Source: a virus | Taxonomy: Duplodnaviria > Caudoviricetes | Length of the DNA: 29,024 nucleotides | Reading direction: 5' to 3' (one strand) | Virus record (IMG/VR): IMGVR_UViG_3300020440_001367 | Span: 1 to 29,024 of that record | Shown here: one piece after another, positions 1 to 29,024 of the stretch | Numbering within the stretch: the first letter of the stretch is position 1 | How the letters are laid out: each line of letters begins with the position of its first letter | Notes under the pieces: model-generated | What the model saw: the letters and a program-made list of their open reading frames with translations, nothing else | Databases searched by the model: none | What the model was told of the DNA's origin: nothing | Made by a program: the position numbers and the translations under genes

Positions 1-69
1 GCGGCACCAGTTTTTGTGTTTGCATTTTTTTATGTTTGCATATTAGTAATGATGGGTAGTGTTAGATGA
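1..69 (+). CDS. 3' end of a small hydrophobic protein (partial)
   Basis: Frame 1 reads APVFVFAFFYVCILVMMGSVR-TGA; the stop overlaps the next ATG (ATGA at 66-69). Confidence 0.5.
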   Translation, partial: AAPVFVFAFFYVCILVMMGSVR

Positions 70-236
70 TTAGATTATGGCACTATTGGTGCAAAGCTAT
101 GGGAAGTCGTGCTTATGATAACGATAGGAAAGACGATCATATACACAATATTATTAGAACATTTTGGTTTTTATTACACATTATAACTTGTTGTATGATT
201 ATAGCAGGTAACGGAAGGATGTTGAATATATGGTAG
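66..236 (+). CDS. small hypothetical membrane protein (56 aa, not in ORF track)
   Basis: Translated by hand: MIRLWHYWCKAMGSRAYDNDRKDDHIHNIIRTFWFLLHIITCCMIIAGNGRMLNIW; overlaps both neighbours. Confidence 0.7.
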   Translation: MIRLWHYWCKAMGSRAYDNDRKDDHIHNIIRTFWFLLHIITCCMIIAGNGRMLNIW

Positions 237-970
237 ATAAATTTATTTTTGATGTTGACGGAACACTCACACCTAGTAGACAAGAGATTGATATGGACTT
301 TGCTGTTTTCTTCACAGACTTCTGTGCTGAAAATGATGTATATCTCGTTACTGGAAGTGATAGAGAAAAAACAATAGAACAGGTAGGAGAGGAAATATAC
401 AGTCTTGCTGACAGAGTTTATAACTGTTCAGGTAGCGATGTATGGGAAGGAAATGTAAATGTTTATACGAGTGATTGGCAAATACCAGAAGAAGCAGAAT
501 CGTGGTTGAAAGCTGAATGTAGATTAAGTGACTTTCCTTTACGAACAGGATTGCATATAGAAAATCGACCTGGTATGGTAAATTTTAGTGTTGTAGGGCG
601 TAATGCAACTATGGGTGAACGTAAAATGTATGTTGAATACGACACCAAAACAAAAGAAAGAATTAGGATTGCTAAAGAATTCCAAAAATTTTTTCCAGCC
701 ATACAAGCAGTGGTTGGTGGTGAAACTGGTATAGATATCTTTCCTTATGGTAAAGATAAAGCACAAATTGTAGAAGATTTTGATGAATTGGAAGATACCT
801 TACACTTTTTTGGTGATAGAATGGATCCAGCTGGAAATGATTACCCTTTGAAAAAAGTAATACTTGACAACAATTTAGGAACATGTTATAGTGTAGACGA
901 TTGGAAACACACATGGAAGATACTAAAAAATATTTCCACGAAGTCTGGCCAGAAGAAGAAGCAATACTGA
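230..970 (+). CDS. HAD-IIB hydrolase, eukaryotic-type phosphomannomutase family
   Basis: Motif I FDVDGTLT, motif II VTGSD, NFSVVGRNA, GG.TGIDIFP.G.DK and FFGDRMDPAGNDYPL, matching PMM1/PMM2-type motifs. Confidence 0.85.
   Translation: MVDKFIFDVDGTLTPSRQEIDMDFAVFFTDFCAENDVYLVTGSDREKTIEQVGEEIYSLADRVYNCSGSDVWEGNVNVYTSDWQIPEEAESWLKAECRLSDFPLRTGLHIENRPGMVNFSVVGRNATMGERKMYVEYDTKTKERIRIAKEFQKFFPAIQAVVGGETGIDIFPYGKDKAQIVEDFDELEDTLHFFGDRMDPAGNDYPLKKVILDNNLGTCYSVDDWKHTWKILKNISTKSGQKKKQY
864..892 (+). promoter_or_regulatory. sigma70-type promoter upstream of uvsE, inside the HAD gene
   Basis: TTGACA (864-869), 17-nt spacer, TATAGT (887-892) with an extended -10 TG. Confidence 0.65.
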
Positions 971-1023
971 AGCAAGGCTTAGAATGGTCAAGACAAAGTA
1001 AGGCAGAGAGAACAAAAAAGAAA

Positions 1024-2043
1024 ATGACAAGACGTATAGGTTTTGCATGTAAGTACATGCACCCGGACCAAACCCAGAAAAAGAAACTGCTAGAAGAGAT
1101 TCAGCGTCCACTAAATACTCGAAGCACAACAGTTGCTTGGTTAAACAGGCAAACAAAAGAAGTTGCTGAAGAACGTTTGTGGGATATCATGGTCCACAAC
1201 ATTAAAAGTTATTACAACTTGATTGAGTATGTAGGAGGATTACCGAATGAACTTAGAATGGTTAGATTGGGAAGTGACGTCTTACCTGTTTATACTGAGC
1301 CTACTTGGTCTTACTTCTGGCGCAAGCCTGATGTACGACAATATTGCGAAAGGCACTTTCCAAACGTCGGCGCAAAGGCTCGTGAACTGGATGTCAGGCT
1401 TTCTATGCATCCTGGTCAGTTTACTGTACTTGCGTCAGATAATCCTGATATCGTAGAGAGAAGTATAGAGGAGTTTGAATATCATGTTGATGTCGCCAGA
1501 TGGATGGGCTTCGGCCAGCAATTCCAAGATTTTAAGATCAATGTCCACATCTCCGGCCGTAAGGGTCCAGCCGGTATCATCGACGTCTACCCAAGATTAT
1601 CTACGGAGGCGAGAAACACAATTACAATCGAAAACGACGAAAACTCGTGGGGCATCGAAGCAAGTTTGGAGTTACGAAAACACCTCGCATTGGTGCTTGA
1701 CATACACCATCACTGGGTCAAAACAGGTGAATATATATTGCCCACCGACGATAGATTTTCTCGCATAGTAGACAGTTGGCGTGGTGTTCGTCCTGTCATA
1801 CACTATTCGGTATCTCGTGAAGACATTTTAGTTGATCACGATTTAGATACATTACCAGACATGGAGAAGTTACTCGAACAAGGGTACAAAAAACAAAAAC
1901 TTAGAGCACACTCTGATTACATGTGGAACAATGCAGTAAATGAATGGGCATTGTCCTTTAGAGACACCGCAGACATTATGGTAGAATCAAAAGCAAAGAA
2001 TCTTGCTAGTATGAAACTACTAAATACTGTATGCGTTTCTTAG
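1024..2043 (+). CDS. uvsE: UV DNA damage repair endonuclease (UvsE/UVDE); start may lie upstream in the same frame (frame open from 901)
   Basis: RIGFACKY, MVRLGSDVLP, RLSMHPGQF, INVHISG, IENDE, LDIHHHW, HYS, RAHSD and MVESKAKN are UVDE motifs. Confidence 0.9.
   Translation: MTRRIGFACKYMHPDQTQKKKLLEEIQRPLNTRSTTVAWLNRQTKEVAEERLWDIMVHNIKSYYNLIEYVGGLPNELRMVRLGSDVLPVYTEPTWSYFWRKPDVRQYCERHFPNVGAKARELDVRLSMHPGQFTVLASDNPDIVERSIEEFEYHVDVARWMGFGQQFQDFKINVHISGRKGPAGIIDVYPRLSTEARNTITIENDENSWGIEASLELRKHLALVLDIHHHWVKTGEYILPTDDRFSRIVDSWRGVRPVIHYSVSREDILVDHDLDTLPDMEKLLEQGYKKQKLRAHSDYMWNNAVNEWALSFRDTADIMVESKAKNLASMKLLNTVCVS
2021..2026 (+). promoter_or_regulatory. TAAATA late-type promoter motif 4 nt before the SOD ATG (leaderless)
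   Basis: ctacTAAATActgtATG; no Shine-Dalgarno between the motif and the ATG. Confidence 0.55.
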
Positions 2044-2591
2044 AATTACAAAATTGCAAAAGAACAAAAGCAAGTAAGTGTCAATGTTCTGATGTAGGTA
2101 AGTTGTCAGAAGATACTGAACAGCCTGTCTTTGCAATTTGTGAATTAGAACATTCTGATACTGTAAAAGGAACAATCTTATTCATGCAAAAATCTGGTTC
2201 ACCTACTCTTATAAAGGGTACCATCAAAGGATTAGAACCAGGAGAGCATGGTTTTCATATACATGAATTTGGCGATTTAAGTCGTGGATGTGAATCAGCA
2301 GGAGCACATTATAATCCAGACGGTGTTGATCATGGCAACCTCGAAAACGGCCATGTGGGCGACTTAGAAAATATTACAGCGAACGAGGATAGGATTTCCG
2401 AATTTACTATTATAGCAAAAAGAGTAGATTTAATTGGAGATCGTAGTGTAATAGGTAGAGCAATCGTAGTTCATAGTGATCAGGATGATCTAGGTAAAGG
2501 TGGAGATGCAGAAAGCCTTAAAACAGGTAATGCAGGCGATAGATTAGCCTGCGGTGTTATTACCTTAACTAAAGGAGAAAACAATGATTAA
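2031..2591 (+). CDS. sodC: Cu/Zn superoxide dismutase with Cys-rich N-terminal extension
   Basis: HGFHIHEFGD, GCESAGAHYNP, DHG, HVGDLENI, RAIVVH and GNAGDRLACGVI; metal ligands and both disulfide Cys are present. Confidence 0.95.
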   Translation: MRFLELQNCKRTKASKCQCSDVGKLSEDTEQPVFAICELEHSDTVKGTILFMQKSGSPTLIKGTIKGLEPGEHGFHIHEFGDLSRGCESAGAHYNPDGVDHGNLENGHVGDLENITANEDRISEFTIIAKRVDLIGDRSVIGRAIVVHSDQDDLGKGGDAESLKTGNAGDRLACGVITLTKGENND

Positions 2592-2751
2592 AAAATGGGT
2601 AAAATCAAGAATTGAAGAACGTACTTCGTGGGATGGCGCGGCCTTAATCCTTATGGGTGTGTTAGTTCTTATCGCTGGTCCATTTGCAAAGTTGGCGGCC
2701 TACGCGGCTATCGCCTATGGTGCATGGACAATCTACAAAAAAGAGGATTAA
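2584..2751 (+). CDS. small membrane protein (55 aa, not in ORF track)
   Basis: AAGGAG RBS; MIKKWVKSRIEERTSWDGAALILMGVLVLIAGPFAKLAAYAAIAYGAWTIYKKED has two hydrophobic segments. Confidence 0.8.
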   Translation: MIKKWVKSRIEERTSWDGAALILMGVLVLIAGPFAKLAAYAAIAYGAWTIYKKED

Positions 2752-3041
2752 AGTTCATCGATTGTGATGTCTGAATTTACAGGAAGATTTAATTTCTTCC
2801 TTTGCTCAACACCTTTTCTTTGAGCAAATCTTTTAGGGTCACAATCGGGGCAAACGTGGACATAAAAGTCGTCAAGTCTTTTAGGGTCCACTTTGCCCTT
2901 CTCTCTTTTAAATTCTTTATGGCATTCGTCACATTGAAAGATAACATAAGACCTAACACGTTTATATGGGTGGTTTTTTCCCTTCTTACTTTTACGTAAA
3001 TAAAAGCGTACTTCTTTTTCAATTCTTTTATACATACTCAT
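2748..3041 (-). CDS. basic Zn-binding hypothetical protein (true start possibly 3035)
   Basis: CDEC...CPDC pairs; Lys/Arg-rich; TAAATA immediately upstream on the - strand; stop overlaps the convergent gene's stop (TTAA). Confidence 0.75.
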   Translation of the reverse strand: MSMYKRIEKEVRFYLRKSKKGKNHPYKRVRSYVIFQCDECHKEFKREKGKVDPKRLDDFYVHVCPDCDPKRFAQRKGVEQRKKLNLPVNSDITIDEL

Positions 3042-3079
3042 ATTTAGTTACGTTAGGATTATAAAATATTATATAAATA
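3041..3079. promoter_or_regulatory. divergent pair of late-type promoter motifs
   Basis: TAAATA on - strand (3046-3041) and a full T4 late consensus TATAAATA on + strand (3072-3079). Confidence 0.65.
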
Positions 3080-3093
3080 CATAGGAGCAGGTA

Positions 3094-3420
3094 ATGGGAA
3101 ACATATTATTTTTAACAGAATCAGCCAAGGAACAAATGGTTAGTATGCTTGAAGAACACAATAAAAGTGCTGTAAGATTAGCACTAAAAGGCGGAGGTTG
3201 TGCAGGATTTAAGTATGATTGGTCTTTGGAAGATGAAACAAAAAATGACGATGAAGTGATAGAATTACCCAAAGGAAAATTTTTAATAGATCCGGCTAGC
3301 ATCATGTATCTATTAGGATCAACAGTGGATTATAAAAAAGAAGTATTTGGCTCATACTTTGATATAAAGAATCCTACATCTACTTCAAGTTGTGGGTGTG
3401 GCGAATCAGTAGGATTTTAA
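3094..3420 (+). CDS. iscA: A-type Fe-S cluster carrier protein (IscA/SufA/HesB family)
   Basis: GGGCAGFKY, IDPASIMYLLGSTVDY and NP...SSCGCGES; AGGAG RBS. Confidence 0.93.
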   Translation: MGNILFLTESAKEQMVSMLEEHNKSAVRLALKGGGCAGFKYDWSLEDETKNDDEVIELPKGKFLIDPASIMYLLGSTVDYKKEVFGSYFDIKNPTSTSSCGCGESVGF

Positions 3421-3423
3421 AAT

Positions 3424-6400
3424 ATGGCAAAACAAGATATTTACTTAGGTGTTGAGGGTAACGACGGTACTGGTGATAGTATTCGTGAAGCCTTTAGAAA
3501 AGCAAACGAGAATTTTACGGAACTATATGCTGTCTTTGGACAAGGCGGAACAATTAGTTTTACTGCACTTAATGACACTCCTGCCGCAATTACACCAGCC
3601 GGAGTATTAATAGGTAATTCTACAGGAACAGAACTAGTACAAAAAACACTTACAGCAGGAACTGGTATTAGCATTGATAATTCAAGTACAACTGCTATAA
3701 CAATTACTAACACTGGTGCGAATATTAATGCTGATACAAGTCCTATACTTGGTGGACCATTAAGCGGAAACAATGTTTATGCAATAGGTAAGATAGGAAC
3801 ATCAACGGCTTCAATTGCAGAATTCAATTCAACACACGGATCCACTATTACTATTGATGATATTGTTGTAGATAAAAAATATCAGGATAAAAATTATGCA
3901 CCACATATTTTACATCAACCAACTAAACCTGTTTTAGCAAGGACTGAACCTACTGATGATACTGGATACACAAAAACTATATCAGAATATAGAAGTGGTA
4001 ATCTTGTTATTAACAGTCATGGTTTTGACAATAGTATTAATGGTGCAACATGGAGATACACTACAACTGGTAGTGCTCCTAGCGGCTTAACAAATAACAC
4101 GGATTATTTTATTAGATTTGTTAATGATAACCAAATAAGTTTACATTCATCTAAGTCAGAAGCACAAAACGACAATGATAATACAAGGGCAAAGGTTAAT
4201 ATTGCTTTAGGTTCAACTACTGCAATTACAGGACAAGATTTTATTAAGGATCAATCATATGATTCTGCACTTTATGGATTTTTCAAAGACGATGAAGTCC
4301 TTCCTAGGAAATCAAGTGTAAGAAGACAAGGCGATGATATGACTGGTGCATTGTACTTGCATGATCATCCAGGATATCTTGCAGGCACAACAGGTGATAT
4401 ATCTGAAAGGCAAGCGGCAACAAAACTTTATGTAGATAATTCTTCCTACGCAAGTACCACAGATTTATTTGTTACCAAACAGGGTGACGATAGCCAGGCA
4501 AATACGCCAGTAGGATTTGAGGGAAGAGGTTTAAGTTATGCTTTTGGAAGTTTAAAGGCGGCGGCACAAAAAGCACAGGAAATTATGGAATCAGCACCAG
4601 TGGAACCAGGTGCATACAGACAAACAATAACATACGATCAAGGTAAGGGCATTGCACTTGTTACGGGTGCAGAAACTAAAACACCAAATGCCGCGGCTAA
4701 GAATGCAGTTACATACCTACAAAAGAACAGACAATTTATTCAGCAAAGTGTGGTTGACTATGTTCAGGACTATTATCCTTCACATGATTTTGCCGCAACT
4801 AATGTACAAAATCCAAATGCAGAAGCACTTCTGTTTAAAAATAAAGCATTTATTCAAGAAGAAGTAACGGCTTGGATCAACTATCAAATTAATACAGGTG
4901 CATCTGTTACATACAGCGACGGTACTGCCAACTACACAGGTTTCAAATACAGTTCTGCTAAATGTAAAAGAGATGTAGGTTATATTGTTGACGCTTGGAT
5001 AAATGATTTATCCAGAGGTGGTAACATTGAAACACGTAGAATAGCATCAAGTTATCTAGCAGGTAATATTAATGCTGTCAAAGTTAATAATTCAAATTCA
5101 AATAATACAGTTGACCAAATAGCACAAACAAATGCCGCGGTTGAATTTGCAAGAGATCTGGTGCAAAACTATGTTTTAAAAAATAAAGTTTATCCTACAA
5201 AACAAGGATACTTTCAGGCTACTGCAACAAACTTTCAACCAAACAGTTTTCAATTTTACATAGGAACTTCTTCATATGCAAATTCTTACGTAAACGGTGG
5301 CACAGTTACAAAGTCAGACGGGACAGTTTTAAATGTAAGCAATTTCACATATGACTATACAACAGGTATTGCCACTGTCACTACTACCACAACACATGGT
5401 CTATCTATAAATGATACAGTATATCTAAAAGATATAAATGTATCTTGTACATATGATGGCGTAGTAACCAATAAAATTTATCCTGAGCATGTAGCACAGG
5501 CTAATGCTGATCAGTTTACTGTTGAAGCAGGAACATACGGAAGTTCTGCTCCTGCAAGTACAACATTTGACATTTATGTAGGCCCTTCGAAGTATGCACA
5601 CACATACGTAAGTGGGGGTAAGGTTTACAAAGGACAAGCGTTCCTTACACCAACTAATGCAACCTATGACCCGGCAACGGGCGTGATGGTAGTCACTGTT
5701 GGTTCTCACTCATTAACAACGTCAGATGTTATATGGATTAAACCTTATGGTATAACATTTACTTGTGGGCAAGATAATAATGCAACTCTTCATCCGTATC
5801 CTAGATCTAAGGATCCAAATTACGGAAAGCCAATTGCAATCACGGCTGTAGATGCTACAACTATTACGGTTAACGTAGGTGTATCAAGCAATACAACCAA
5901 TCACACTTATGTAAGTTCATCTTCTAATGCAATAGAATACTGGTCAAATAATTACGACATCACAGGATTTTCATACAGCAATACAACTGGCTATGCAACT
6001 GTAACAGCTTCAGGACATGGTATGTCAGGAGGCACAGCATGTAAGTTAGATGATATATTAATACAATGCACACAACCAACACCGGCACTTAAAAGATATC
6101 CAGATGCTTTTGTTTGCGAACAAGGTACAGGCATAAGAGATGTAAGTGGTAGAGCAACAACATTAACAGAAACTATTGTTTCAGTAATCGCAGGTGGATT
6201 GGATAAACTAGTAGCACCTATACAGCCTACGCTTTCTAATAATACATGTGAACGTGATCTAGGTTTAATTATTGACGGTATGATTATTGACATACGTAAT
6301 GGTACCAACAGTAACTTTAATGCTTTACAGGCGGCGAAAAGATATTTCAGCACACCAAGTGGACAAAAAGCAAGAGTTCAACAAAGCACACAAACTATTG

Positions 6401-9400
6401 GAGCAATAACAAAAGCAAAGTCATATGTAAATTCAGTTTTAAATAATGTAGATTTAAGAAGAACATCTAAACAGTTTGCAGTAAACTCTGATAACTTAAC
6501 AAGCACACAATTTGAAGTGACACTAGGAACTTCAACTGTTGTTCATACATATATAAGTGGCGGAACAGTTACATTTGGAACTAATCAATATGCAATAAGC
6601 AATTTTGCTTACAATAATACCACAGGAAAAGCTATTATTACAACAACTACTGCACATGGAAGAACTGCTGGAGATGTTGTATTCTTAGAAGATATAAAAG
6701 TTTCCTGTGCTGACGGAACAAAACTTTATCCTTCAGATCATTCAGGATTAATTCCACAATACTTAGATTCATCTATAAACAACGTTTCTAATACAATAAA
6801 AAATGCTATTGCTAATCAATTTGATATCATTGTAGACATACTCACAAACGGATTCACAGCAGTTGATACTTACACCGTTGTTGAAGGAAGTACATATAGA
6901 TTGAGATTTGGAAACGGTGGAACTAACTATTACACAGATCAAGGTATTAATTCAAATGTTGATATACTTCCAGGTAAAATTATAGTAGGTAAGACAACAG
7001 GTGCTAGAGGTAGAATTGTAAAATATACAAGCGGAGTTGATCTTGGCAATGTAAATTATGATGAAGTAGAATGTGTACTAGTTGAACCTAAAGAATTTAG
7101 AATAGGTGAAGAGCTTGAATTTGGTAATCCAACAAATGAGAAACAAATTTGTATTCATGTAGAGTCAGGAATATACTACGAGGATTATCCAATCAAAGTT
7201 CCAGACAACGTGTCAATCAAGGGTACTGATTTTAGACGTTGTCAAATTAGACCTGCTCCTAGGATTTCACAATCACCTTGGGTAAGGACATATTTTTACA
7301 GAGATAAACTTCTTGATAATTTAAAAATTACAGACTTTACAGGGTCTGATATTGCAACAGCTCAACAAATTACAATGACAGGTAATAACACCGCAGGTGG
7401 AACGATTACGGTAACTCCTGCAGATAATATTGCTCCTATTTCTTGGGACGGTGGTTGGTTCTATACTGATAGCGGAGCAGTTGGATTAATATCAAATGCA
7501 GACGGCGGAAGTAATTTTAATGTAACACTTACAATAGACACTCTCCCAAATTTAGATCCTATTGCCTCAGGTGCATGGCACATTAAACAAACTTCAAATT
7601 ACGGTTATCATTATCTTACTGATCCTTTGGATGCTACTAGTACTCCAAAAACAAACGATCAGATGGATGTGTTCTTGATGAACGATGCAACTAGATTAGC
7701 AAATATGACATTCCAAGGACATGGTGGATTTGCACAGGTTCTGGATCCAAGTGGCCAGGTACTAATTAAATCTCCATACACGCAGGTTTGTGGATCTTTC
7801 TCAGGTTCTATTAACAAACAAGCATTTAGAGGGGGAATGTTTATTGATGGTTTTGCAGGTAATTTAGAAACTGTTATTACAAGTAAAGATGATAACTTTA
7901 CTCTGAATGTTCAATCAGTGGCAGGTACGGGTTTAAGAATTAGGAAACCTCAAACACCAGCACCATTCTTCATAGCGGGTGTACGTTATCAAGTTGATGC
8001 TGTTTCAGAATACGATGGTGGAACAGGAACAGCAAAACTTCTAATTAATAAATTATCAAACGGCGGAAACGGTTACACAGATGCTATACCAGGTGGTGGA
8101 ACAAATATCTTTATCCAAACAGCTGGTAACAGAAGTATGTTAGCAAACGACTACACACAGGTTAATGATCTAGGTTATGGATTGTTCTGTAACAATGCGG
8201 CGTTGTCAGAACAAGTTTCAACCTTTACATATTACAACCATACAGCGTTTATGAGTAACAACGGCTCTGAAATTAGAGCTCTAAACTGTTCTAACGCAAA
8301 TGGTAACTTTGGATTAGTTGCAGACGGCGCCGATCCAAACGAAACTGTTGACTTGGTTACATCTTTAAGAAACATGCAACAGCCTGCAAAAGTTTATAAC
8401 GATGGAGACAACTCCGTTGGCTTAGGTGCTATAGCACATGCGGCGGGTGTATTTACAGTACACGTTTTTGATTGTGATTACCATCCTTATGCAAACAGTT
8501 TATTAGACGTTTATACTTCAACAGGTGTAACCACATATGAAGTTACAAGTGTAAGCATTCTTCCAGGTACAGGGTCCACAGCAGGACCTACAGGTAGAAA
8601 AGGAAGCAATCTACCTATATACAAATTAGGTATTGCAGGAAGCACAGGATTAGAAACAGCAATCACAGGTGATTATGATGCTAACTTTGCCAGTGATGCG
8701 GCACCATACGTTGTAATTAGAATGAATAAAAATCATCTGTTTGATGATGTTGCAGGTGTTACAAGTATTAGACCATCAACAGCATTGGTGTTTGATGAAA
8801 ACCCTGACAGGGTATATAGAACTATCAGCTTTAACAATCAAGACTCAGATAACTCTCAACTAGCCGCAGATAGATTCCAAATTGTATTCGACAGTGGCTT
8901 TGGCCATTTAAATCTTACACTTAGAAATACAGAAGCGGCACTAAACACATACGCAGGCACAGGAACCACAATGGGTGCTACAGCCGGCGATGTCGTTTTA
9001 GCTATTGAAAAGTTAACAGATGCACAAGTAACTAGAATTGGCAACAATGATATGATATTTTCCTACAAAGGAAAAACACACATCGTTGGAAGCTACACTG
9101 ATAGAGGATCATATGCAACTGTAGGATTAACAGACCTTGCTAGTTCTAACATCAACAGTGATTCAAGTTTATATAGTGCGGCAGGTATAGGAGCAGATTT
9201 AAGATATTCGCCGGCGGCCACAAGAACAATACCTCTTTCATTACAAGATAATGAAGCTGGTAATATCACAGTAGGTATTTCTACACTTAGAGCAAACGGA
9301 CATGATTTTGATAAAATTGGTACAGGTGGTTTTAACACAACCAACTATCCAAGTATCATTTATGGTGAACCTACCAAATCAGCTACACAGGCAAACGAAG

Positions 9401-11241: not shown

Positions 11242-11522
11242 TGGCTATCCAAACTATTAACATCGGATCCAGTGCTAACAAAGGTGATGGTGATCCTTTA
11301 AGAGTTGCTTTTGATAAAATAAATAAAAACTTTGCAGAACTTGATGTTACAAACACAAAAAGAGATGTTGTAGGTTCAGTATTTGCAGACGACTCTACTT
11401 TACTTGTTGATGCTGTAAATGGAGTGATACCAGGTTATATAAAATTATCAACATTAAAATCAGTAGCGGCGGCTAGCACAGACTTTGCTGACTTTAAAAG
11501 TAGAATAGCGAATCTGACATAG
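11241..11522 (+). CDS. small tail/baseplate protein with gp9/gp10-like N-terminus
   Basis: MAIQTINIGSSANKGDGDPLRVAFDKINKNFAEL; GSVFADDSTLLVD motif; TAATG coupling. Confidence 0.75.
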   Translation: MAIQTINIGSSANKGDGDPLRVAFDKINKNFAELDVTNTKRDVVGSVFADDSTLLVDAVNGVIPGYIKLSTLKSVAAASTDFADFKSRIANLT

Positions 11523-20313: not shown

Positions 20314-20340
20314 GTAAGTATATAATAAAGGAGGTCAATT

Positions 20341-20739
20341 ATGGCAGTTAGACAAACAGGACGTAAGCAATACAAAACCATGCAAGGTAAAGATATTGAC
20401 ATGGATTTGCTTAGACAACGAAATGAATTAACTCCAGCAGTTGGTAACGTAAGGGTAAATGCACGAGGCGACGAATTAGGTCCAGGTGGTAAGATTATCA
20501 AAAAACGTGAAGAAGTCTTAAGAGACTACTACGAAGATAATGTTGCTCCTACTGAATTTGAAACTCCTACTGCACAACCAATCACAGAACCAATTGTTGA
20601 ACCCGAACTACAAGAAAAGGTTGAAGACACTAAGAAGTCAGCTTCTACAAAAGCAAAGCCTGGAAAAACAAAGGCTGAGTCTAAAGAAGACGAATGGATA
20701 GAAGACGATGACGGCAATTACGTAAAAAGAGGTGCGTAA
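20341..20739 (+). CDS. hypothetical protein (132 aa)
   Basis: Strong AAGGAGG RBS; preceded by the variant motif TAAGTA (20311-20316); AVGNVRVNARGDELGPGG core and a low-complexity tail. Confidence 0.8.
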   Translation: MAVRQTGRKQYKTMQGKDIDMDLLRQRNELTPAVGNVRVNARGDELGPGGKIIKKREEVLRDYYEDNVAPTEFETPTAQPITEPIVEPELQEKVEDTKKSASTKAKPGKTKAESKEDEWIEDDDGNYVKRGA

Positions 20740-21098
20740 TGGCTGGAAACCTTGTAACCATTAAAGTCGATGGACTTAAAGCTATAGGAGACGGGGTTTT
20801 AGTTTCCGAAATGAACTTCGGGGAACAGAAGACCAAATCAGGGTTAATTATTAGAGCCGATGACGGAGAGGTCAGAGGTATCTATGCAAGATGGGGCAGA
20901 GTAATCAGCAAAGGTCCTAAAAACACAGATCCTTATGAAGTAGGACAATGGATTCTAGTCGATCATGGTCGTTGGACTAGAGGAGTCAACATATCAATAA
21001 ACGGAGAAGATTTGACTGTTCGAAAAGTTGATAACAAAGATATCTTAGGATATTCAGATAAACCACTTTCAGATTATAGTGTAGGACAAGAGTTATGA
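20739..21098 (+). CDS. groES: GroES-like co-chaperonin
   Basis: LKAIGDGVLV...EQKTKSGLII...GRVISKGP...EVGQWILV...DILG follows the GroES pattern, including the mobile loop. Confidence 0.8.
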   Translation: MAGNLVTIKVDGLKAIGDGVLVSEMNFGEQKTKSGLIIRADDGEVRGIYARWGRVISKGPKNTDPYEVGQWILVDHGRWTRGVNISINGEDLTVRKVDNKDILGYSDKPLSDYSVGQEL

Positions 21099-21547
21099 TA
21101 GATGTAGAAACAATACAAAGAGAACTTCCCGAAAAGACAGATACAGATATAGTTGACTTAAACAAATATAAACACTTTGTAGAAAAAGTTACATCAGAAG
21201 AATCAAACGATTGGTCCTATACACAGGCCCGATTGCACGAACTGAACGATGACGTAAACATTTCACTGCTTTTAACAGGAGCAATTGGTATAGCATCAGA
21301 AGGAGGAGAATATGCAGAAATTGTTAAAAAGTGTATTTTCCAAGGTAAACCTTTGGATGATGACACAAAGTTTCATATAAAACGAGAATTGGGTGATATT
21401 ATTTGGTATTGGATTAATTCGTGCAGAGCGTTGGATTTAGACCCGAATGAAGTTATAGCTGAAAATGTAAAAAAATTAAGTTCAAGATATCCTGGCGGTG
21501 CCTTTGATGTTCACTATTCAGAGAATCGTAAGGAAAACGATTTATAG
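21095..21547 (+). CDS. mazG: MazG-like nucleoside triphosphate pyrophosphohydrolase
   Basis: GIASEGGEYAEIVKK...ELGDIIWY...N..KLSSRYP. Confidence 0.88.
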   Translation: MIDVETIQRELPEKTDTDIVDLNKYKHFVEKVTSEESNDWSYTQARLHELNDDVNISLLLTGAIGIASEGGEYAEIVKKCIFQGKPLDDDTKFHIKRELGDIIWYWINSCRALDLDPNEVIAENVKKLSSRYPGGAFDVHYSENRKENDL

Positions 21548-21560
21548 TCACCAAAAACAG

Positions 21561-21589
21561 TTGACATTCTTATATTAAGGTGTTACAAT
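21561..21589 (+). promoter_or_regulatory. near-consensus sigma70 promoter heading the replication/auxiliary gene run
   Basis: TTGACA (21561-21566), 17 nt, TACAAT (21584-21589) with an extended TG; intergenic; AGGAG RBS follows. Confidence 0.8.
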
Positions 21590-21611
21590 AAAACACAAAA
21601 TAGGAGTGTAA

Positions 21612-21776
21612 ATGAAGTTTCCAAAAACACAATCCAGTAGTATAGGTACAACAGGAGCCACAGGCGTTGCTCTGATGGTAATGCATCTGACAGGATTTGT
21701 TAATGGTTGGGCATGGCCAATCCTATATATATTTTTAATTTTTTGTGCAATAGTACAAGAGAATAGGAAAGGCTAA
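21612..21776 (+). CDS. small membrane protein (54 aa, not in ORF track)
   Basis: AGGAG RBS; MKFPKTQSSSIGTTGATGVALMVMHLTGFVNGWAWPILYIFLIFCAIVQENRKG; TAATG coupling to the next gene. Confidence 0.8.
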   Translation: MKFPKTQSSSIGTTGATGVALMVMHLTGFVNGWAWPILYIFLIFCAIVQENRKG

Positions 21777-22318
21777 TGGCAGTACACGGAATGATTGATA
21801 TTGAGACACTAGGAGTAGATCCTGGTTGTGTAGTTCTTACAATAGGTGGAATAAAATTTAATCCCTATTCAAATGCAGAACCACATGATGGTTTGTACAT
21901 TAGATGCAATGTCGATGAACAAACAGAATTAGGTAGAACTGTAGATGAAAATACATTAGCTTGGTGGAACAAACAAGATCCAAAAATTAAAGATGAAGCA
22001 TTGTCTGATAATGACAGAGTAAATTTAAATGAAGTGTTAAAACAGATAAACAAATTTTGTGTAGGGCTTGATAACATATGGTGCCAAGGTCCTACATTTG
22101 ATTTTACAATATTAGAAAATTTGTATAGACAACTAGGAACTCCTGTTCCGTGGCATTACTGGCAGATTAGAGATTCAAGAACACTTTTTAAGATGATGCC
22201 TAAAGATCCTAGAAAAGAAATACAAAGCGACTTGCACAATGCATTAGCTGACTGTTATTATCAAGCGAAGTGTGTACAAAAAACTTTTAAACATTTTGGA
22301 GTAGTAAATGGCAGATAG
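21776..22318 (+). CDS. DEDDh 3'-5' exonuclease (DnaQ-like superfamily)
   Basis: MIDIETLG (ExoI), GPTFDFTIL (ExoII), RDSRT and HNALADC (ExoIII). Confidence 0.9.
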   Translation: MAVHGMIDIETLGVDPGCVVLTIGGIKFNPYSNAEPHDGLYIRCNVDEQTELGRTVDENTLAWWNKQDPKIKDEALSDNDRVNLNEVLKQINKFCVGLDNIWCQGPTFDFTILENLYRQLGTPVPWHYWQIRDSRTLFKMMPKDPRKEIQSDLHNALADCYYQAKCVQKTFKHFGVVNGR

Positions 22319-22619
22319 AAAATTAGTCGACGGCACTTGGGCACAAGAGTTGGATCAACCTGTTGATCTAGTGATTAAAACAAAATGTCCAAGCAAATGG
22401 AAAATTGTTGATATGGAAACAGGTAAGGCATACGTTGGGACAGATAAAAATAAAAAGTTTCAGTATTGGGAACCGGTTGATAATGAACGATTAAAGAATA
22501 TCGAATCCGAACTGAAAGAACTTAATAAGCAATTAAGTAAACATATAAAGTTTATTGATGATACTTATGAAGGATTGAAGAATCCAATCAATGCGGCAAG
22601 GAGGTGGTTAGGCAGATGA
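22308..22619 (+). CDS. hypothetical protein with C-terminal coiled coil
   Basis: GGAG RBS; overlaps both neighbours; heptad pattern ERLKNIESELKELNKQL. Confidence 0.75.
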   Translation: MADRKLVDGTWAQELDQPVDLVIKTKCPSKWKIVDMETGKAYVGTDKNKKFQYWEPVDNERLKNIESELKELNKQLSKHIKFIDDTYEGLKNPINAARRWLGR

Positions 22620-23533
22620 AGGAACTTTGGGTTGAAAAATATCGTCCGAAAGACGTGGACGGATATGTGTTTAGAGATGAACATCAAAAACGTCAAGTAC
22701 AACAGTGGATCAAAGATGGTACTATTCCACACTTGCTTTTTTCAGGTAATGCTGGTATAGGTAAAACAACTCTTGCTAAAATATTGTTAGCACAATTAGA
22801 AGTAAATGATTTAGATGTGTTAGAAATAAATGCAAGTAGAACAAATTCAGTAGAAGATGTTAGAGATAAGGTCGTAAACTTTGTACAAATGATTCCATTT
22901 GGAGAATTTAAAGTTGTATTACTCGATGAGGCCGATTATCTTAGTCCAAATGCTCAGGCGGCATTACGCGGAGTTATGGAAGAATATCACACCACTTCAA
23001 GATTTATTCTTACTTGTAATTACCCCAACCGTATTATCCCTGCTTTGCACAGTCGTTGTCAGGGCTTTCACATAGAACGTATTGATCAAACAGAATTTAC
23101 TGCCAGAGTTGCAGAGATTTTGATTGCAGAAGAAATTACTCCAGACTTAGATGTACTTGATACTTATGTTAAAGCAACTTATCCAGATCTACGTAAGTGT
23201 GTTAACATGGTACAAATGAATAGTGTAAATGGTACACTTGTTCCTCCTGAAAAGAGTGATGCTGGAGATAGTGATTACAAACTTGAAATGACTGAGCTAT
23301 TCAAAGCGGGTAAAATTACCCAAGCAAGAAAACTTGTTTGTAGTCAAGCACGTCCCGAAGAAATAGAAGATGTTTATAAATGGTTATATGACAACATTGA
23401 TCTGTTTGGTGACGAAGAAAAGCAAGAAAGTGCAATTCTCATAATTAAACAAGGTCTTGTTGATCATACATTAGTTTCTGATCCAGAAATAAACCTAGCG
23501 GCAACTATGATTAGATTAGCGAGAATGAAATGA
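22616..23533 (+). CDS. sliding-clamp loader AAA+ subunit (RFC small subunit/T4 gp44-like)
   Basis: WVEKYRP, PHLLFSGNAGIGKTT (Walker A), LEINAS, LLDEAD (Walker B) and SRC motif; start moved to ATG 22616 (ATGA overlap). Confidence 0.93.
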   Translation: MKELWVEKYRPKDVDGYVFRDEHQKRQVQQWIKDGTIPHLLFSGNAGIGKTTLAKILLAQLEVNDLDVLEINASRTNSVEDVRDKVVNFVQMIPFGEFKVVLLDEADYLSPNAQAALRGVMEEYHTTSRFILTCNYPNRIIPALHSRCQGFHIERIDQTEFTARVAEILIAEEITPDLDVLDTYVKATYPDLRKCVNMVQMNSVNGTLVPPEKSDAGDSDYKLEMTELFKAGKITQARKLVCSQARPEEIEDVYKWLYDNIDLFGDEEKQESAILIIKQGLVDHTLVSDPEINLAATMIRLARMK

Positions 23534-23955
23534 AAATATTAATTTTTGGTTTACCAGGAAGTGGTAAAACAACACTAGCAAAACCCTTTGCAGAACTTAT
23601 TAACGGTATACATATAAACGCAGACGAAGTAAGGAAGAAGTACGATGACTGGGATTTCAGTCCTGAAGGTCGTATTAGACAAGCTCAACGTATGCGAAAT
23701 CTAGCTGACGGGGTTGAAATGGCAGGTAAGATAGCAGTAGCTGATTTTGTTTGCCCTACTGAAAAAGCAAGAAAAGAATTTGCACCTGATTATACAGTAT
23801 GGATGAATACTATTAAAGAAGGTAGATTTGAAGATACGAATAAAATGTTTGAAGATCCACCTAGTTGTAATTACCATGTACGTGAATGGTTTACTGATAC
23901 ACACCAACAACTTTTAGAAGTTGTTAAAAATTACATGGAGCGAAATAATGTTTGA
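23530..23955 (+). CDS. P-loop kinase, adenylylsulfate-kinase (CysC)-like
   Basis: GLPGSGKTT, ADEVR, DFSPEGRIRQ, ADFVCP and FEDP. Confidence 0.75.
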   Translation: MKILIFGLPGSGKTTLAKPFAELINGIHINADEVRKKYDDWDFSPEGRIRQAQRMRNLADGVEMAGKIAVADFVCPTEKARKEFAPDYTVWMNTIKEGRFEDTNKMFEDPPSCNYHVREWFTDTHQQLLEVVKNYMERNNV

Positions 23956-24358
23956 TTGGAAAAAACCTACAACACAGATGCTGGGAAGATGGCAACCTTG
24001 GCATGATGGTCATACTGCTTTATTTAAAAAAGCTCTTGCAGAAACAGGTCAAGTCATTATAATGGTTCGTGATGTAGGAGGTATTGTGGGAGAAGATGCT
24101 GGTGGAGGAAGAACTGTAGCTCAAACAGATAATCCATTTGACTTTTCAAAAGTTTGTGTTAATATACGTAATGGACTTGAAGAACATGGTTATACAATGA
24201 ATGAAGAATATATAGTTATGAAGGTACCAAACATAGTAGATATAAGTTATGGCAGAGGTGTGGGTTACACATTTACTGAACATGACTTAGGAGAAGAAGT
24301 GCATAAAATTAGTGCAACAAACATCCGTGCTCATTTACGAGAGAAAGGAGAGTTGTGA
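23948..24358 (+). CDS. HxGH-family nucleotidyltransferase (cytidylyltransferase-like)
   Basis: [22 protein letters not shown] and ISATNIR; start taken at ATG 23948 (GGAG upstream). Confidence 0.8.
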
Positions 24359-24690
24359 CATACCTAGTAAACGACAACTGTATAAAGTGCAAACACATGG
24401 ATTGTGTAGAAGTATGTCCTGTAGATTGTTTTTACGAGGGTGAAAACATGCTTGTAATTAATCCTGATGAGTGTATCGATTGTGGTGTATGTGAACCTGA
24501 GTGTCCTGTAGAAGCTATTATACAAGGTGAAGAAGATAATCCTTGGTATGAACTTAATAATAAATGGTCACAAGAATGGCCTAATATCTCACAAGCAAGA
24601 CCTGAAGATGTACCTTCCGATGCCTCTGACTGGAAAGATGTTCCAGATAAAATAAAATACTTTTCAGAAAAACCTGGCAAAGGTGACTAA
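24355..24690 (+). CDS. fdxA: 7Fe-type ferredoxin
   Basis: [21 protein letters not shown]...[17 protein letters not shown]; GTG start with AGGAG RBS. Confidence 0.93.
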
Positions 24691-25028
24691 TGATTCCTAT
24701 CTGTGTCAATCACGGCTGTACTCGTAAGGCTACAAAAAGTGGCAAACATAAATTTAGACCAGTATGTTGGAAATGCCATCAAGCATCATATGGAGCAAGA
24801 GCCTTAGAAGAAGGTGTGAGATTTGCAAAAAAAGTTTACTGCGAAAATGTAGACGGTAGACTAGGTTATGTATGCACCGCACATATTCCTTATTCAGGTG
24901 CATTAGAACTAGACCACATAGACGGTAACCAAGTAAATAATAAATTAAATAATATACAAACACTTTGTAAGGTTTGTCATTCTTATAAAAGTCATAAGAA
25001 CGAAGATTACAAAAAAGGAAGATTATGA
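24690..25028 (+). CDS. HNH endonuclease with Zn-binding Cys pairs
   Basis: LELDHIDGNQVNNKLNNIQTLCKVCH; N-terminal CVNHGC and CWKCH. Confidence 0.85.
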   Translation: MIPICVNHGCTRKATKSGKHKFRPVCWKCHQASYGARALEEGVRFAKKVYCENVDGRLGYVCTAHIPYSGALELDHIDGNQVNNKLNNIQTLCKVCHSYKSHKNEDYKKGRL

Positions 25029-25345
25029 GATTTAAATGTAAGCATATATTATTAAGTCACAAAGATGCTGAAAATAGCTCTCATGAAAGAGCATTAGGTG
25101 TAGCTATGGAAGAAGCTGAAGCAATTATTAAAAAATTAAAAACAGGTGAAATAAAATTTGAAGAAACTGCAAGGCGACATAGTGCATGTTTAAGTGGACC
25201 ATCAGCAGGAGGAGAACTTGGGTGGCAGGAGGAAGAGCATTTCCATCCAGACTTTTCAAATGCAGTTAGAGTCATACCTATAGACCAAATAGGTCCTCCT
25301 ATTATTTCACCTTGGGGAGTTCATGTTGTTTGGAGAACTGGGTGA
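25025..25345 (+). CDS. parvulin/PpiC-type peptidyl-prolyl isomerase
   Basis: HILL, FEETARRHS.C.SG...GGELG, F...F, and SPWGVHVV. Confidence 0.9.
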   Translation: MRFKCKHILLSHKDAENSSHERALGVAMEEAEAIIKKLKTGEIKFEETARRHSACLSGPSAGGELGWQEEEHFHPDFSNAVRVIPIDQIGPPIISPWGVHVVWRTG

Positions 25346-25521
25346 TAGATTATCCAGAAACAATAATTTACACAGAAGAAGAAGGAATATCCTGTATGGG
25401 AGAAGCAATGGATCATCCTAAGGTATACTATGCAGTGCCTGAAGAAGGTTTTGTAAAGTGTAATTACTGTGATATAAAATTTACTAGAAATAAAAAATAT
25501 AAGGACCACAAAAATGATTGA
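25342..25521 (+). CDS. zf-CHCC zinc-finger protein (NDUFS6-like)
   Basis: SCMG....DHPKVY.......VKCNYCDIKF; GTG 25342 in a GTGA overlap with a GGAG RBS. Confidence 0.8.
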   Translation: MIDYPETIIYTEEEGISCMGEAMDHPKVYYAVPEEGFVKCNYCDIKFTRNKKYKDHKND

Positions 25522-26047
25522 ATATGAATACTATGACTGGACACAATTAATCAGTGAAAGAGATATTAATCATATGTGTAGAGATGTTGAAAACGGAATA
25601 AGGGCAGGAAAGTTTTGGCATAATAGTCCTAAATACCAAACAAACTGGAATGTGTTCCAAGACTTTACAGATTTAAAAATGTCTTTCATTTGGTCTTGTT
25701 TTAGATTCCTAGGAAGAGAAGTACAAATTAAAAATATTCAAAGTTGGAGTTTTATGACTTCGTTAAAGAACGAAGAAGATAGAGATAAACTATGGCATCA
25801 TCATAACCATAATACAGCAACTACAACTGTAAGTGGAGTATTCTATATGCGTTTACCTGATGATGTTAAAGATTTAGAAAAAGCTGGCACTGAACTTGCA
25901 CCGACAAGTCCAGAAGGAGAAGGTAATTTTTTTGTTCCTTGGAAAACAGGACACTGGATGATATATCCAGGAAAAGTATGGCACCGACCTGGTGTTGTAC
26001 AATCTATGAACGATAGATATATTGTAGCCGCAGACATGGAGTTTTAA
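25514..26047 (+). CDS. putative 2OG-Fe(II) oxygenase
   Basis: WHHHNH, SGVFYMRLP, GT, WMIYPGKVWHRP and R...AAD fit a double-stranded beta-helix oxygenase. Confidence 0.7.
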   Translation: MIEYEYYDWTQLISERDINHMCRDVENGIRAGKFWHNSPKYQTNWNVFQDFTDLKMSFIWSCFRFLGREVQIKNIQSWSFMTSLKNEEDRDKLWHHHNHNTATTTVSGVFYMRLPDDVKDLEKAGTELAPTSPEGEGNFFVPWKTGHWMIYPGKVWHRPGVVQSMNDRYIVAADMEF

Positions 26048-26731
26048 ATGAGTGTAAGATTAATATCATATAGTAAAGCATCTGAATTCGAAACATATCC
26101 AGATGGACAACCTTTAAATTGTCAGGATCTTGTTGCCTATTGTGCAAGAGTAAGTAATCCTGCAAACCAAATGAATAAAGAAACTAGCGAAAAATTAATT
26201 AAGTATCTAATAAAACATGCTCATTGGTCGCCATTAGAAATGGTAAGTGCTTGTTTAGAAATAAAAACAACAAGAGATATTGCACATCAAATTGTAAGAC
26301 ATCGAAGTTTTAGCTTCCAAGAATTTAGTCAACGTTATGCTGATCCAGAAGCACAAGGTGATATGTTTGAATACAGTGAAGCAAGACTACAAGACCCTAA
26401 AAACAGACAAAACTCTATAGAAGTCGACGATAAAAAATTACAGCAGGAATGGGAATGGGCTCAAATGCGTATAGCACATCTAGCCAAGAAAGAATACGAC
26501 TGGGCTATTAAAAAAGGTATAGCAAAAGAACAAGCAAGGAAAGTTCTTCCGGAAGGCCTTACAAAAACCACACTATATATGAATGGAACCTTACGAAGTT
26601 GGATCCATTATATTGACCTACGGGGTGCTAACGGCACACAAAAGGAACATATGGAAATTGCCCGATTATGTGCCGAAGTCATAGCAAAAATTTTTCCTAT
26701 GACAAACGAGCTTACTTACTCGTCGCCATAA
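26048..26731 (+). CDS. thyX: flavin-dependent thymidylate synthase
   Basis: HWSPLE, QIVRHRSFSFQEFSQRY, AKEQARKVLP and NGTLRSWIHYIDLR. Confidence 0.96.
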   Translation: MSVRLISYSKASEFETYPDGQPLNCQDLVAYCARVSNPANQMNKETSEKLIKYLIKHAHWSPLEMVSACLEIKTTRDIAHQIVRHRSFSFQEFSQRYADPEAQGDMFEYSEARLQDPKNRQNSIEVDDKKLQQEWEWAQMRIAHLAKKEYDWAIKKGIAKEQARKVLPEGLTKTTLYMNGTLRSWIHYIDLRGANGTQKEHMEIARLCAEVIAKIFPMTNELTYSSP

Positions 26732-27438
26732 ACTTCTAATACTTCTTTAACTGCTTCGTGCCTTTCAATGTCAGCGTGATTGAATGTTACACATGCTAAT
26801 CTACTTGCCTTTTGATGCCGTTTCAATTGACTTATAAAGTCTAGTAGGCCGTTATCACTCATCCTGTCAGCTTGGTTTAAGTCACCAGTGACTGCCATTT
26901 TTGATCCTTCGCCTAATCTTGTCAACAACATCTTCATTTGGCTTGCAGTAGAATTTTGCATTTCGTCTGCAACTATAAATGCACGTTTAAAAGTGCGACC
27001 ACGCATATACGCCAACGGTGCAATTTCTATTACACCTTCGTCTATCATGCCAGTAATTTCTTGTGATGTAAAGTAATCTCTTAATACATCAAAAACTGGT
27101 CTGGTCCAGGGTGCCATTTTCTGTTCTAAAGTCCCAGGCAAAAAACCTAAATCTTCGTCTACAGAAACAGCTGGTCTAGTTACAATAATCTTGTCAATAA
27201 CACCTTCTTTGAAAAGTTTTACCGCAGTCAAAACAGCAATGAGGGTCTTTCCTGTCCCCGCCGGACCAATTCCAAAGACTACGTCTTTTCTCGTGTCTGA
27301 CAAGGTAAGCAGGTATGTTTCCTGTGCTCTATTTCTTGGGTAAATCTTAACTGTTTTTTTCTTTTCTGGAAGGTAGTTATTTAATTGTACAACATTATTG
27401 TGAAAGTTCTTACTCTTTCGAGATCGTCTTGCACTCAT
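26716..27438 (-). CDS. phoH: PhoH-family ATPase
   Basis: GPAGTGKT, TRPAV, LGFLPG, PLAYMRGRTF, DEMQN, TRLG and GD..Q.D; start at ATG 27438 after AAGGAGG. Confidence 0.95.
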   Translation of the reverse strand: MSARRSRKSKNFHNNVVQLNNYLPEKKKTVKIYPRNRAQETYLLTLSDTRKDVVFGIGPAGTGKTLIAVLTAVKLFKEGVIDKIIVTRPAVSVDEDLGFLPGTLEQKMAPWTRPVFDVLRDYFTSQEITGMIDEGVIEIAPLAYMRGRTFKRAFIVADEMQNSTASQMKMLLTRLGEGSKMAVTGDLNQADRMSDNGLLDFISQLKRHQKASRLACVTFNHADIERHEAVKEVLEVYGDE

Positions 27439-27485
27439 GAAGCGTCCTCCTTTTGACTTCGTTTGTAGCGTTTTTACTACACAAA

Positions 27486-27539
27486 TATTTAGTAGATCAC
27501 TCCTAGAAGAAATGTACACAGACAATTATCTGATAAATA
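27486..27539. promoter_or_regulatory. divergent pair of TAAATA motifs
   Basis: TAAATA on - strand (27491-27486, toward phoH) and on + strand (27534-27539). Confidence 0.6.
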
Positions 27540-27563
27540 ATAGTACATGATAGGTGTGTTCAA

Positions 27564-28094
27564 ATGAAAGATATTTTAGACGTAATAAAAAACATACAAG
27601 GTATATACGAAAGCGATATGGCTTTCACCATTTTAAAGGACTTTGAAAGGGTGTTAGACGATTTAGACGTGTATGTGTATGAAAATTGGGCTGACGGAGA
27701 ACTTGTATCAGGTCCTAATATAACTAGACATTGGGTAACCTGTGCTTTTATGTGGGATTTAGATAAAATGCCAGACCCTAGTGGTGGCAAAAGACTATTA
27801 GATTATGATTGCAGAGTCACTTATAAAAAAGATAAAATAATCAAACCAAGAAAAATAAGAAATCCAGACGATGTACGTCCTGGAACTAAAAAGGGCAAAT
27901 TAGATACACATAGCATTTGGGTAGTAGAAATAATGATGCCGAAGAAACTTATTGCTGATATTTACGGTGGTTATAAAGCTATGAATGACTATGCTGTTGA
28001 TCCAGCAACTCAACCATCTGTACCAGCTGAGGCACAACCTGCAGAAGCGGCGGCAGATGCGACATTAGATGCTGAAACACCCGAGGTAGCATAA
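27564..28094 (+). CDS. hypothetical phage protein (176 aa)
   Basis: Long ORF with normal codon use; follows TAAATA; acidic Ala-rich tail. Confidence 0.8.
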   Translation: MKDILDVIKNIQGIYESDMAFTILKDFERVLDDLDVYVYENWADGELVSGPNITRHWVTCAFMWDLDKMPDPSGGKRLLDYDCRVTYKKDKIIKPRKIRNPDDVRPGTKKGKLDTHSIWVVEIMMPKKLIADIYGGYKAMNDYAVDPATQPSVPAEAQPAEAAADATLDAETPEVA

Positions 28095-28795
28095 TGGGAT
28101 TAGTCAAAGACGATCTAAAATTTTTAGTCGATAGTATAATTGAAATAGATTCTTACAAGTCAAAGATGGGTGAAGACCAAGACATAGTAACATTAGCCTT
28201 TAGTGTTACTGGACAGGAACCAGCAAAAGATTTAGAAAACTTTGTAGAAAAAGGATATCCTTTTGTACTAGATGCAGATGTTAGCTCAGGCGAACAACCA
28301 GACGGAACATATAAGGTATTTGTTGAATTAGAAAGATCTAAAGATGTTCCAATGCAAATATTAGAATTAGCCGACGGTGTAACAAAACTTTCCGACCTTG
28401 AAGGTTTTAGATTTAGATATCATAAAAACTTTAAAAGCAAAGACTTAAACAACGAAAATATTGCTGAAACTATTCCATTTGATTCAGATAGTTATGTAGC
28501 TAGAATAAAAGAAACAAATTTAGAAAATTATAAAAACTATTTTACTAACAGTTATGCAGAAAGTGTAGAAATGAAAGACGATGTATTGACTGTTAAGAAC
28601 ACTTATTCACAACCTGTGTCGTTTAAGGTTATGGATTTTGGTAAAGATATTGATATTAAGGAAAGTATCAATATGGAGGATATGGCTGAGGTTATCTGGC
28701 TAACTAAATATCTAGGCGATTACAATATAAACAAGTATGGTAAAGATCTAGTGCTAGAAAATCAAGGTTATGTGCTAAAGATAAGAAGGATCTAA
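28094..28795 (+). CDS. hypothetical phage protein (233 aa)
   Basis: GAGG RBS; TAATG coupling; acidic globular sequence. Confidence 0.8.
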   Translation: MGLVKDDLKFLVDSIIEIDSYKSKMGEDQDIVTLAFSVTGQEPAKDLENFVEKGYPFVLDADVSSGEQPDGTYKVFVELERSKDVPMQILELADGVTKLSDLEGFRFRYHKNFKSKDLNNENIAETIPFDSDSYVARIKETNLENYKNYFTNSYAESVEMKDDVLTVKNTYSQPVSFKVMDFGKDIDIKESINMEDMAEVIWLTKYLGDYNINKYGKDLVLENQGYVLKIRRI

Positions 28796-28796
28796 T

Positions 28797-29024
28797 ATGG
28801 CTAAAGAACATTTTAAATTCGAGTTTGAAGAATGGATGGCTGAAGAGCTTATTCATAGAGATGACTGGAAGGAATGGTACGAGGCAATGTGTGAGATATT
28901 GCCTTTGTGGGAAGTAAATACCATAGAAAGAGTAGCAGGGTTTGTTGCACAATGTGGACACGAATCAGCAGGCTTTAGAGTTTTATCTGAAAACTTAAAT
29001 TATAGTGCTAAAGCTCTTAATACA
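28797..29024 (+). CDS. glycoside hydrolase family 19 endolysin/lysozyme-like protein (partial, runs off the window)
   Basis: Translated by hand: MAKEHFKFEF...NTIERVAGFVAQCGHESAGFRVLSENLNYSAKAL, matching the GH19 R.A.F.AQ..HES.G...L.ENLNYS motif; AAGGA RBS. Confidence 0.85.
   Translation, partial: MAKEHFKFEFEEWMAEELIHRDDWKEWYEAMCEILPLWEVNTIERVAGFVAQCGHESAGFRVLSENLNYSAKALNT

Follow-up and report, generated by a model that had tools for sequence, protein, structure and literature searches.

Loss of GCWGC sites, irrespective of flanking guanines, from a marine jumbo phage and many of its relatives

Introduction

Non-temperate phages are reported to eliminate palindromic type II restriction sites from their genomes, an outcome given for about 7% of type II cases (PMC6286503). 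The word GCWGC (W = A or T) is a recognised type II site, as the first-pass annotation of the DNA described here had stated. TseI/ApeKI and M.AbaBS3I share it as their recognition word (PMC3643589, PMC6329791), and its depletion has been reported for lytic Listeria phages facing LmoJ2 (PMC10059834). In this report, we analyse the complete absence of GCWGC from a 29,024-base stretch of viral DNA (Duplodnaviria; Caudoviricetes; record IMGVR_UViG_3300020440_001367), hereafter "the window". Judged by its sequence, the window is a fragment of an uncultured marine jumbo phage related to PA5oct. The elimination is as complete as in the cases of PMC6286503, but most of the purges found here depend on sequence context, a dependence that does not extend to one of the words. 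The main text of that study does not use the word "flank".

A second set of described systems concerns DNA modification. The DpdA protein of phage CAjan is reported to modify GA and GGC and to block enzymes that have those steps in their sites (PMC7544227), and the signature LxxxHRHxF is given for DpdL (PMC10516641). The DNA of PA5oct resists EcoRI, BmrI, ApaLI, XbaI as well as BsaI, which a preprint interprets as modification of the G in GA and/or GG (PMC12191111). The phages studied here resemble the Dpd systems (PMC7544227, PMC10516641, PMC6884629) in FolE/QueD/QueE, a tRNA-guanine transglycosylase (TGT) fold, a DpdL-like signature and protection at G-purine steps. Unlike the GGC reported for CAjan, their surviving sites include GGT contexts (a GG rule), and one distant phage follows GG only. 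Further, in contrast to the Dpd phages, the modification is here a predicted one, based on genes of relatives that lie outside the window. PA5oct and Paride (Wroclawvirus) are nearest among cultured phages: the best cultured matches of a structural marker gene of the window are PA5oct-like jumbo phages (40.6%), and the modification cluster is shared as well. Paride differs in that a 41-kb stretch of it keeps 51 GCWGC, 42 of them bare (without G before or C after), and in its host and habitat.

Results

Neither GCAGC nor GCTGC occurs on either strand of the window (1..29024). A Markov model predicts 32.5 sites, and no other 5-mer is as strongly depleted (z -7.1). When synonymous codons are shuffled inside each of 32 genes, 32.7 sites are expected, with a minimum of 25 over 300 shuffles. 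At 0 against 32.5 and 32.7, the window falls under the published threshold for type II avoidance (bias <0.1 with >15 sites expected; PMC6286503). The exact count thus bears out what the first-pass annotation had read by eye. Other words that it listed as present are indeed there: GATC 94 times, GGCC 23, CCGG 22, CCWGG 36 and GCSGC 43-44, the last against 12 expected and counter to the AT bias.

Some 90% of the expected GCWGC sites are Ala-Ala pairs, and it is in these that codon choice departs from the norm. The first codon of the pair is GCG in 25 cases and GCC in 13, that is, in 38 of 38 (41 of 41 in an automatic gene set), whereas GCA or GCT makes up 536 of the 617 other Ala codons and GCG/GCC only 13%. 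Before codons that start with GA, GG or GT, the use of GCA and GCT is ordinary; the recoding is therefore specific to a following GC. Three Ala-Ala-Ala runs, all on the forward strand, read exactly as first quoted: GCG-GCG-GCA in a giant tail-fibre gene (4558..4566), GCG-GCG-GCT (11466..11474) and GCG-GCG-GCA (28047..28055). Outside Ala-Ala pairs, merely 2.8 sites are expected in the window, so the case for frame independence rests on its relatives.

These relatives, denoted G### for records of related phages and L### for individual loci from them, were reached mainly through a virion structural gene (27564..28094, forward strand) that matches 80 uncultured viral loci at 49-84%. Thirty of the 80 loci have no GCWGC and 43 have no bare GCWGC. 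Two further markers, taken from purged records, found 66 of 67 loci free of the word, although many of these are close copies. In nine larger records of 67-343 kb (G001, G008, G011-G014, G031, G032 and G034), GCWGC is at zero in every frame; the three frames of G001 have 0 of 146, 0 of 13 and 0 of 9 expected sites. A tree of 55 rows (the window, G031 and those 53 of the 80 loci that were neither duplicates nor without a marker) shows the loss spanning a large marine clade, reappearing in a second group and in the distant G031, and absent elsewhere. The gap that the first-pass annotation proposed to look for in related phages is thus clade-wide.

Some relatives have lost GCWGC only conditionally. 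Every surviving copy in G002 (30), G003 (9), G004 (24) and G010 (4) is preceded by G or followed by C; G002/G003 and G010 nest within the absolute-loss clade. The same kind of rule holds in the window for other palindromes. All four GCGC sites follow a G: two at 1320 and 1370 (1319..1374), one at 2636 (2635..2640) and one at 8327 (8326..8331), which also has a C after it. Unshielded GCGC stands at 0 of 9 expected and shielded GCGC at 4 of 9. Each of the eight CTGCAG copies is followed by A or G. For CTWAG, sites that lack a GA/GG step number 0 against 9 expected, and those that have one number 34 against 30. We therefore applied a word test to all palindromes of 4-6 bases, in which a shielded site has a GA/GG step overlapping or flanking it. 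In G013, G014 and G032 pooled, 11 of 54 testable words are lost when unshielded and only one of 85 when shielded. That one is GCWGC (0 of 48 expected).

G031 (L426-L443) is a complete phage of 343 kb. All of its 295 GATC sites overlap GG/CC, and survivors follow GG only, which suggests a transglycosylase of different specificity. Scored under a GG-only rule, chosen after this GATC pattern was seen, G031 has lost 22 of 81 unshielded words and one of 50 shielded words, again GCWGC (0 of 81 expected). Shielded GCWGC is likewise at 0 in the window (7.2 expected), in G001 (34.5) and in G034 (42.6). GCWGC is thus the sole word removed even in the shielded context, both in the pooled relatives and in the distant G031. 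GCGC, CTWAG and AAGCTT have been lost as well, each in one context only. The first-pass annotation had noted neither these losses and the rule behind them nor the link to a likely guanine modification.

Other words are affected elsewhere in the family. AGCT (0 against 311 expected) and CTAG (0 against 327) are absolutely lost from G001 (L081-L088), and likewise from G008 (L097-L100); a nuclease behind these two losses was not found in the parts of G001 and G008 examined. Further lineages absolutely lose CATG, GTAC or GCGC. TGCA stands at 8-20% of expectation in G006 and G013 with no obvious flank rule, and G005 keeps 54 of 256 expected GTWAC with no flank dependence. In G005, an N4/N6 methylase gene adjoins a gene for a 281-aa protein (L113:10752-12665), possibly a phage restriction-modification (R-M) pair.

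The predicted source of the shield lies outside the window. FolE, QueD and QueE are encoded by G001, G008 and other relatives. Next to them stands a gene for a 489-aa protein whose sequence matched nothing in PDB, Pfam, PHROGs, NCBIfam or PADLOC. Its G001 model folds like TGT (Foldseek E 3e-7, the top hits being all TGT). A 36% homologue is present in PA5oct, and in cultured records the protein matches only PA5oct-like phages, one Sinorhizobium phage and one Vibrio phage. More than 7,000 homologues make up the TGT-fold family, with no Pfam labels among the matches listed. A 147-aa neighbour in the modification cluster carries LxxxHRHxF, the DpdL signature. With FolE, QueD, QueE and the TGT-fold protein in its relatives, a deazaguanine shield is likely. 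We assign one to the phage of the window, as likely, by kinship and because the window obeys the context rule. Unpurged relatives possess the cluster as well; modification would thus shape which copies of a word go, not whether the word is attacked.

The cluster at L085:12581-16528 (G001) comprises the TGT-fold gene, a gene for a 153-aa protein, the DpdL-like gene and a gene for a 348-aa protein, and it is largely conserved as far as Paride. It may make an undescribed guanine derivative. The 348-aa protein, which matched nothing in library searches, may resemble a glycosyltransferase.

The genes of the window encode tail fibres, baseplate-like proteins, a clamp loader, ThyX, PhoH, UvdE, a Cu/Zn superoxide dismutase (SOD), FdxA and an HNH protein. 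A cluster at 230-3420 holds genes for a phosphomannomutase-like HAD protein, the UV endonuclease UvdE, the Cu/Zn SOD and an ErpA-like Fe-S protein. Members of the clade also carry the haem-pathway genes HemC, HemE and HemB (L230:5733-7552 in G013; L221:11228-12019 in G011).

Discussion

The zero count, the recoded Ala-Ala pairs and the clade-wide gap uphold the claim of the first-pass annotation that selection against GCWGC is strong and specific. A gap that extends through the clade in every frame and either strand, and that leaves no deamination products, points to selection against a cutter of double-stranded DNA. Avoidance of some enzyme that cuts GCWGC is, in our judgement, almost certainly the cause.

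We think it probable, with modest confidence, that GCWGC was purged to escape a host type II enzyme that is unaffected by the predicted guanine modification in the flanks. The TGT-fold protein would place a deazaguanine where GA/GG steps have their G and so would shield sites such as GATC, GANTC, CCWGG and GGCC, which could then be kept. GCWGC has no internal GA/GG step; its shielding would depend on a G in the flank. If the GCWGC enzyme that this clade encounters is indifferent to the flank, every copy would have to be removed, by synonymous recoding. The enzyme would belong to the host, probably a marine alphaproteobacterium. We favour a host enzyme on three counts: numerous unrelated palindromes have been purged alongside one another, the loss appears repeatedly in separate lineages, and most of the purged sequence examined lacks the HNH gene discussed below. 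Host R-M, one of the causes first proposed, is thus the best fit, although no host enzyme was found.

Several observations weigh against this explanation. A GCWGC restriction system was not found in any candidate host. Of five alphaproteobacterial genomes, queried solely with the C5 methylase family PF00145, two gave matches, none of them assignable to GCWGC. The host itself is weakly suggested by FdxA (24355..24690, forward strand), whose matches are mostly from Alphaproteobacteria (60-71%, among genomes in 2 of 64 database parts). A flanking step does shield GCGC and AAGCTT in these same genomes, as it does GCWGC itself in G002, G003, G004 and G010; a flank-blind host enzyme is therefore an added assumption. 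The shielded GCWGC class of the window comprises just 7-8 expected sites. TCTAGA (0 against 8.1) and GACCG/CGGTC (0 against 10.3) are also missing from the window despite containing GA/GG steps; L002 has both gaps too (GACCG/CGGTC 1, TCTAGA 0), but the relatives mostly keep both words. Lastly, the association with HNH carriers described below fits a cutter made by the phage.

No TseI/ApeKI-type gene was seen in the window, and relatives and hosts were not searched directly with those sequences. GCWGC methylation has been reported for Chloroflexi in aquatic (marine and lake) metaepigenomes (PMC6329791, PMC8919816), a different taxon from the alphaproteobacterial group suggested here. A PADLOC scan of 280 proteins, including 163 of the 422 called in the complete G031, revealed no credible restriction enzyme; such negatives are weak, in that the 281-aa protein beside the G005 methylase gave no match either. 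A 179-aa G031 protein with a weak PADLOC restriction-enzyme match proved to be the chaperone HscB. A 180-aa HNH protein of G031 was set aside as the GCWGC enzyme since 45% homologues occur in the unpurged G015 and in Paride. A 226-aa protein of G032 matches a "nicking endonuclease" model (E 1.5e-14) and is found in that record only; it may be a repair glycosylase. Separately, a low-GC alphaproteobacterial genome has a C5 methylase gene adjoining a gene for a 286-aa protein (L548:1489-3358), a pair that we presumptively liken to an R-M cassette of the HaeIII type. Loci from candidate hosts are not depleted in GCWGC.

The next explanation, possible but distinctly less probable than a host enzyme, is that the phage makes the cutter. 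The 112-aa zinc-finger HNH nuclease encoded at 24690..25028 (forward strand), or its subfamily, would be a methylase-free GCWGC nuclease that cuts the DNA of the host or of rival phages. Host enzymes would have removed the unshielded copies of the word first, and the phage enzyme the shielded ones afterwards. We tentatively entertain, at the same low strength, that the HNH protein is a mobile GCWGC nuclease of marine phages that settles only in genomes already stripped of GCWGC. The protein matches PF01844 (E 2e-5) and is zinc-binding, its model has a mean confidence score (pLDDT) of 90, and Cys, Asp-His, Asn and His columns are conserved in 31 homologues.

The first-pass annotation had proposed such a nuclease, and its carriers do correlate with GCWGC-free loci. 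We surveyed 86 distinct loci of at least 5 kb, kept from 160 fetched. Thirty-three of 37 with HNH identity of at least 54% are free of GCWGC, against 4 of 49 with more distant homologues; among loci without bare GCGC, the figures are 33 of 36 and 3 of 13. In a comparison set sharing a mobile transporter-like gene, 33 of 80 loci are GCWGC-free. The subfamily occupies many genome positions, in carriers of 30-48% GC that include some viruses with no match to the phage family of the window. A complete carrier of 328 kb has no GCAGCA on either strand, and the complete, unpurged G015 has no HNH homologue. The nesting of the conditional G002/G003 and G010 within the absolute clade is what loss of a nuclease would give.

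The correlation is confounded, however. Of the 37 close loci, 36 also lack bare GCGC, and the loci share ancestry and are not independent; a shared guild of hosts can thus explain the link. L686, at 54% HNH identity, has 13 bare GCWGC, and 2-6 sites remain in each of four other tips in that HNH clade. The gene is patchy as well: it is present in one of 33 syntenic loci and in 2 of 25 purged partial records not chosen for it (~1.8 Mb), where one gene per genome predicts about five. No close HNH match occurs in 22 conditional or unpurged records (~3.0 Mb). In the complete, purged G031 the sole homologue is a distant one (E 1.5e-9), and homologues at 30-38% are common in unrelated cultured phages.

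Nor does structure assign a specificity to the protein. It matches no PADLOC restriction-enzyme model, its fold matches are all weak (best Z 4.1; SciA 3.1; Hpy99I 2.8), and Foldseek gave no match at E 0.001; no specificity is therefore transferable to it, and the lack of a significant match speaks neither for nor against a restriction enzyme. It resembles GVE2 HNH, Gme HNH, PacI, Hpy99I and T5 SciA as a zinc-binding HNH of similar size. T5 SciA is bound to GCGC DNA according to the title of its PDB entry, and a literature search for SciA returned nothing on its function. The HNH protein was also considered as an SphI-like cutter of GCATGC (0 against 93 expected in the 37 carrier loci). Against this candidate, GCATGC is also low in non-carriers, and two copies occur in the carrier G042.

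It is improbable that another nuclease encoded by the phage, of an unrecognised family or from an uncovered region, is the cutter. The complete genomes examined, such as G031 and G015, come from outside the clade of the window; and the absolute, patchy loss of AGCT, CTAG, CATG, GTAC and GCGC across lineages would suit further nucleases of this kind. However, among 80 protein families exclusive to purged records the HNH protein is the sole nuclease recognised by eye, and the 280 proteins scanned with PADLOC yielded no credible candidate. A search with a G010 gene matched only itself.

Slightly less probable still is a host defence beyond orthodox type II, be it a type IIS enzyme, a modification-dependent one or a DNA-binding system. 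BbvI is a type IIS enzyme that recognises GCAGC, and since GCAGC and GCTGC are reverse complements, an asymmetric enzyme of this type would leave the same gap. Type IIM sites, too, are listed as including GCWGC, but site elimination is reported almost solely for orthodox type II sites (both PMC6286503), and the window showed no gene for a cytosine methylase.

It is very improbable that the sites were removed by deamination of host-methylated GCWGC, as the first-pass annotation had allowed, or by an effect on codon pairs or RNA. The large share of Ala-Ala pairs among expected sites would suit either process. Against them, the C-to-T products of GCWGC are at expectation in the window (99 against 100) and near it in larger records; instead, the central base was changed towards G/C, so that the sites moved to GCSGC. 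In addition, the count is zero in all frames and orientations, the survivors in relatives obey a strand-symmetric flank rule, and the unpurged G007 freely uses GCA/GCT as first Ala in 132 of 159 pairs. We rejected both on the product counts and the all-frame loss. Ala-Ala pairs are moreover thinned in purged genomes (41 against 50 expected in the window, 182 against 236 in G001, 370 against 461 in another) but not in unpurged ones (159 against 144 in G007, 813 against 702 in another). An artefact of library or assembly, such as DNA cut by a GCWGC enzyme before sequencing, can be dismissed: no support for one was found, the genes are intact with recoded Ala pairs across 29 kb, the gap is repeated in dozens of independent records, and four marine runs, each from a different study, contain contigs near-identical to the window, one run being possibly its source. 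RNA runs contain only small portions of the window.

Site avoidance by phages is textbook knowledge; what is added here is a loss that depends on modification, together with a single exempt word. A literature search, made mostly without subscription papers, turned up neither an account of site loss governed by the flanks nor one of a GCWGC purge in marine jumbo phages. The surviving copies of a word would predict, without chemistry, the motif of a DNA modification in abundant uncultured phages, GA and GG in this clade and GG in G031. The GCWGC exception singles out one enzyme, which would be a flank-blind enzyme widespread in hosts or else a phage nuclease of very small size. If the HNH explanation were true, the words missing from a genome would read out the enzymes of its hosts, its modification motif and the phage's own nuclease. 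Either outcome bears on the defences of dominant marine bacteria and on the assignment of hosts to giant phages.

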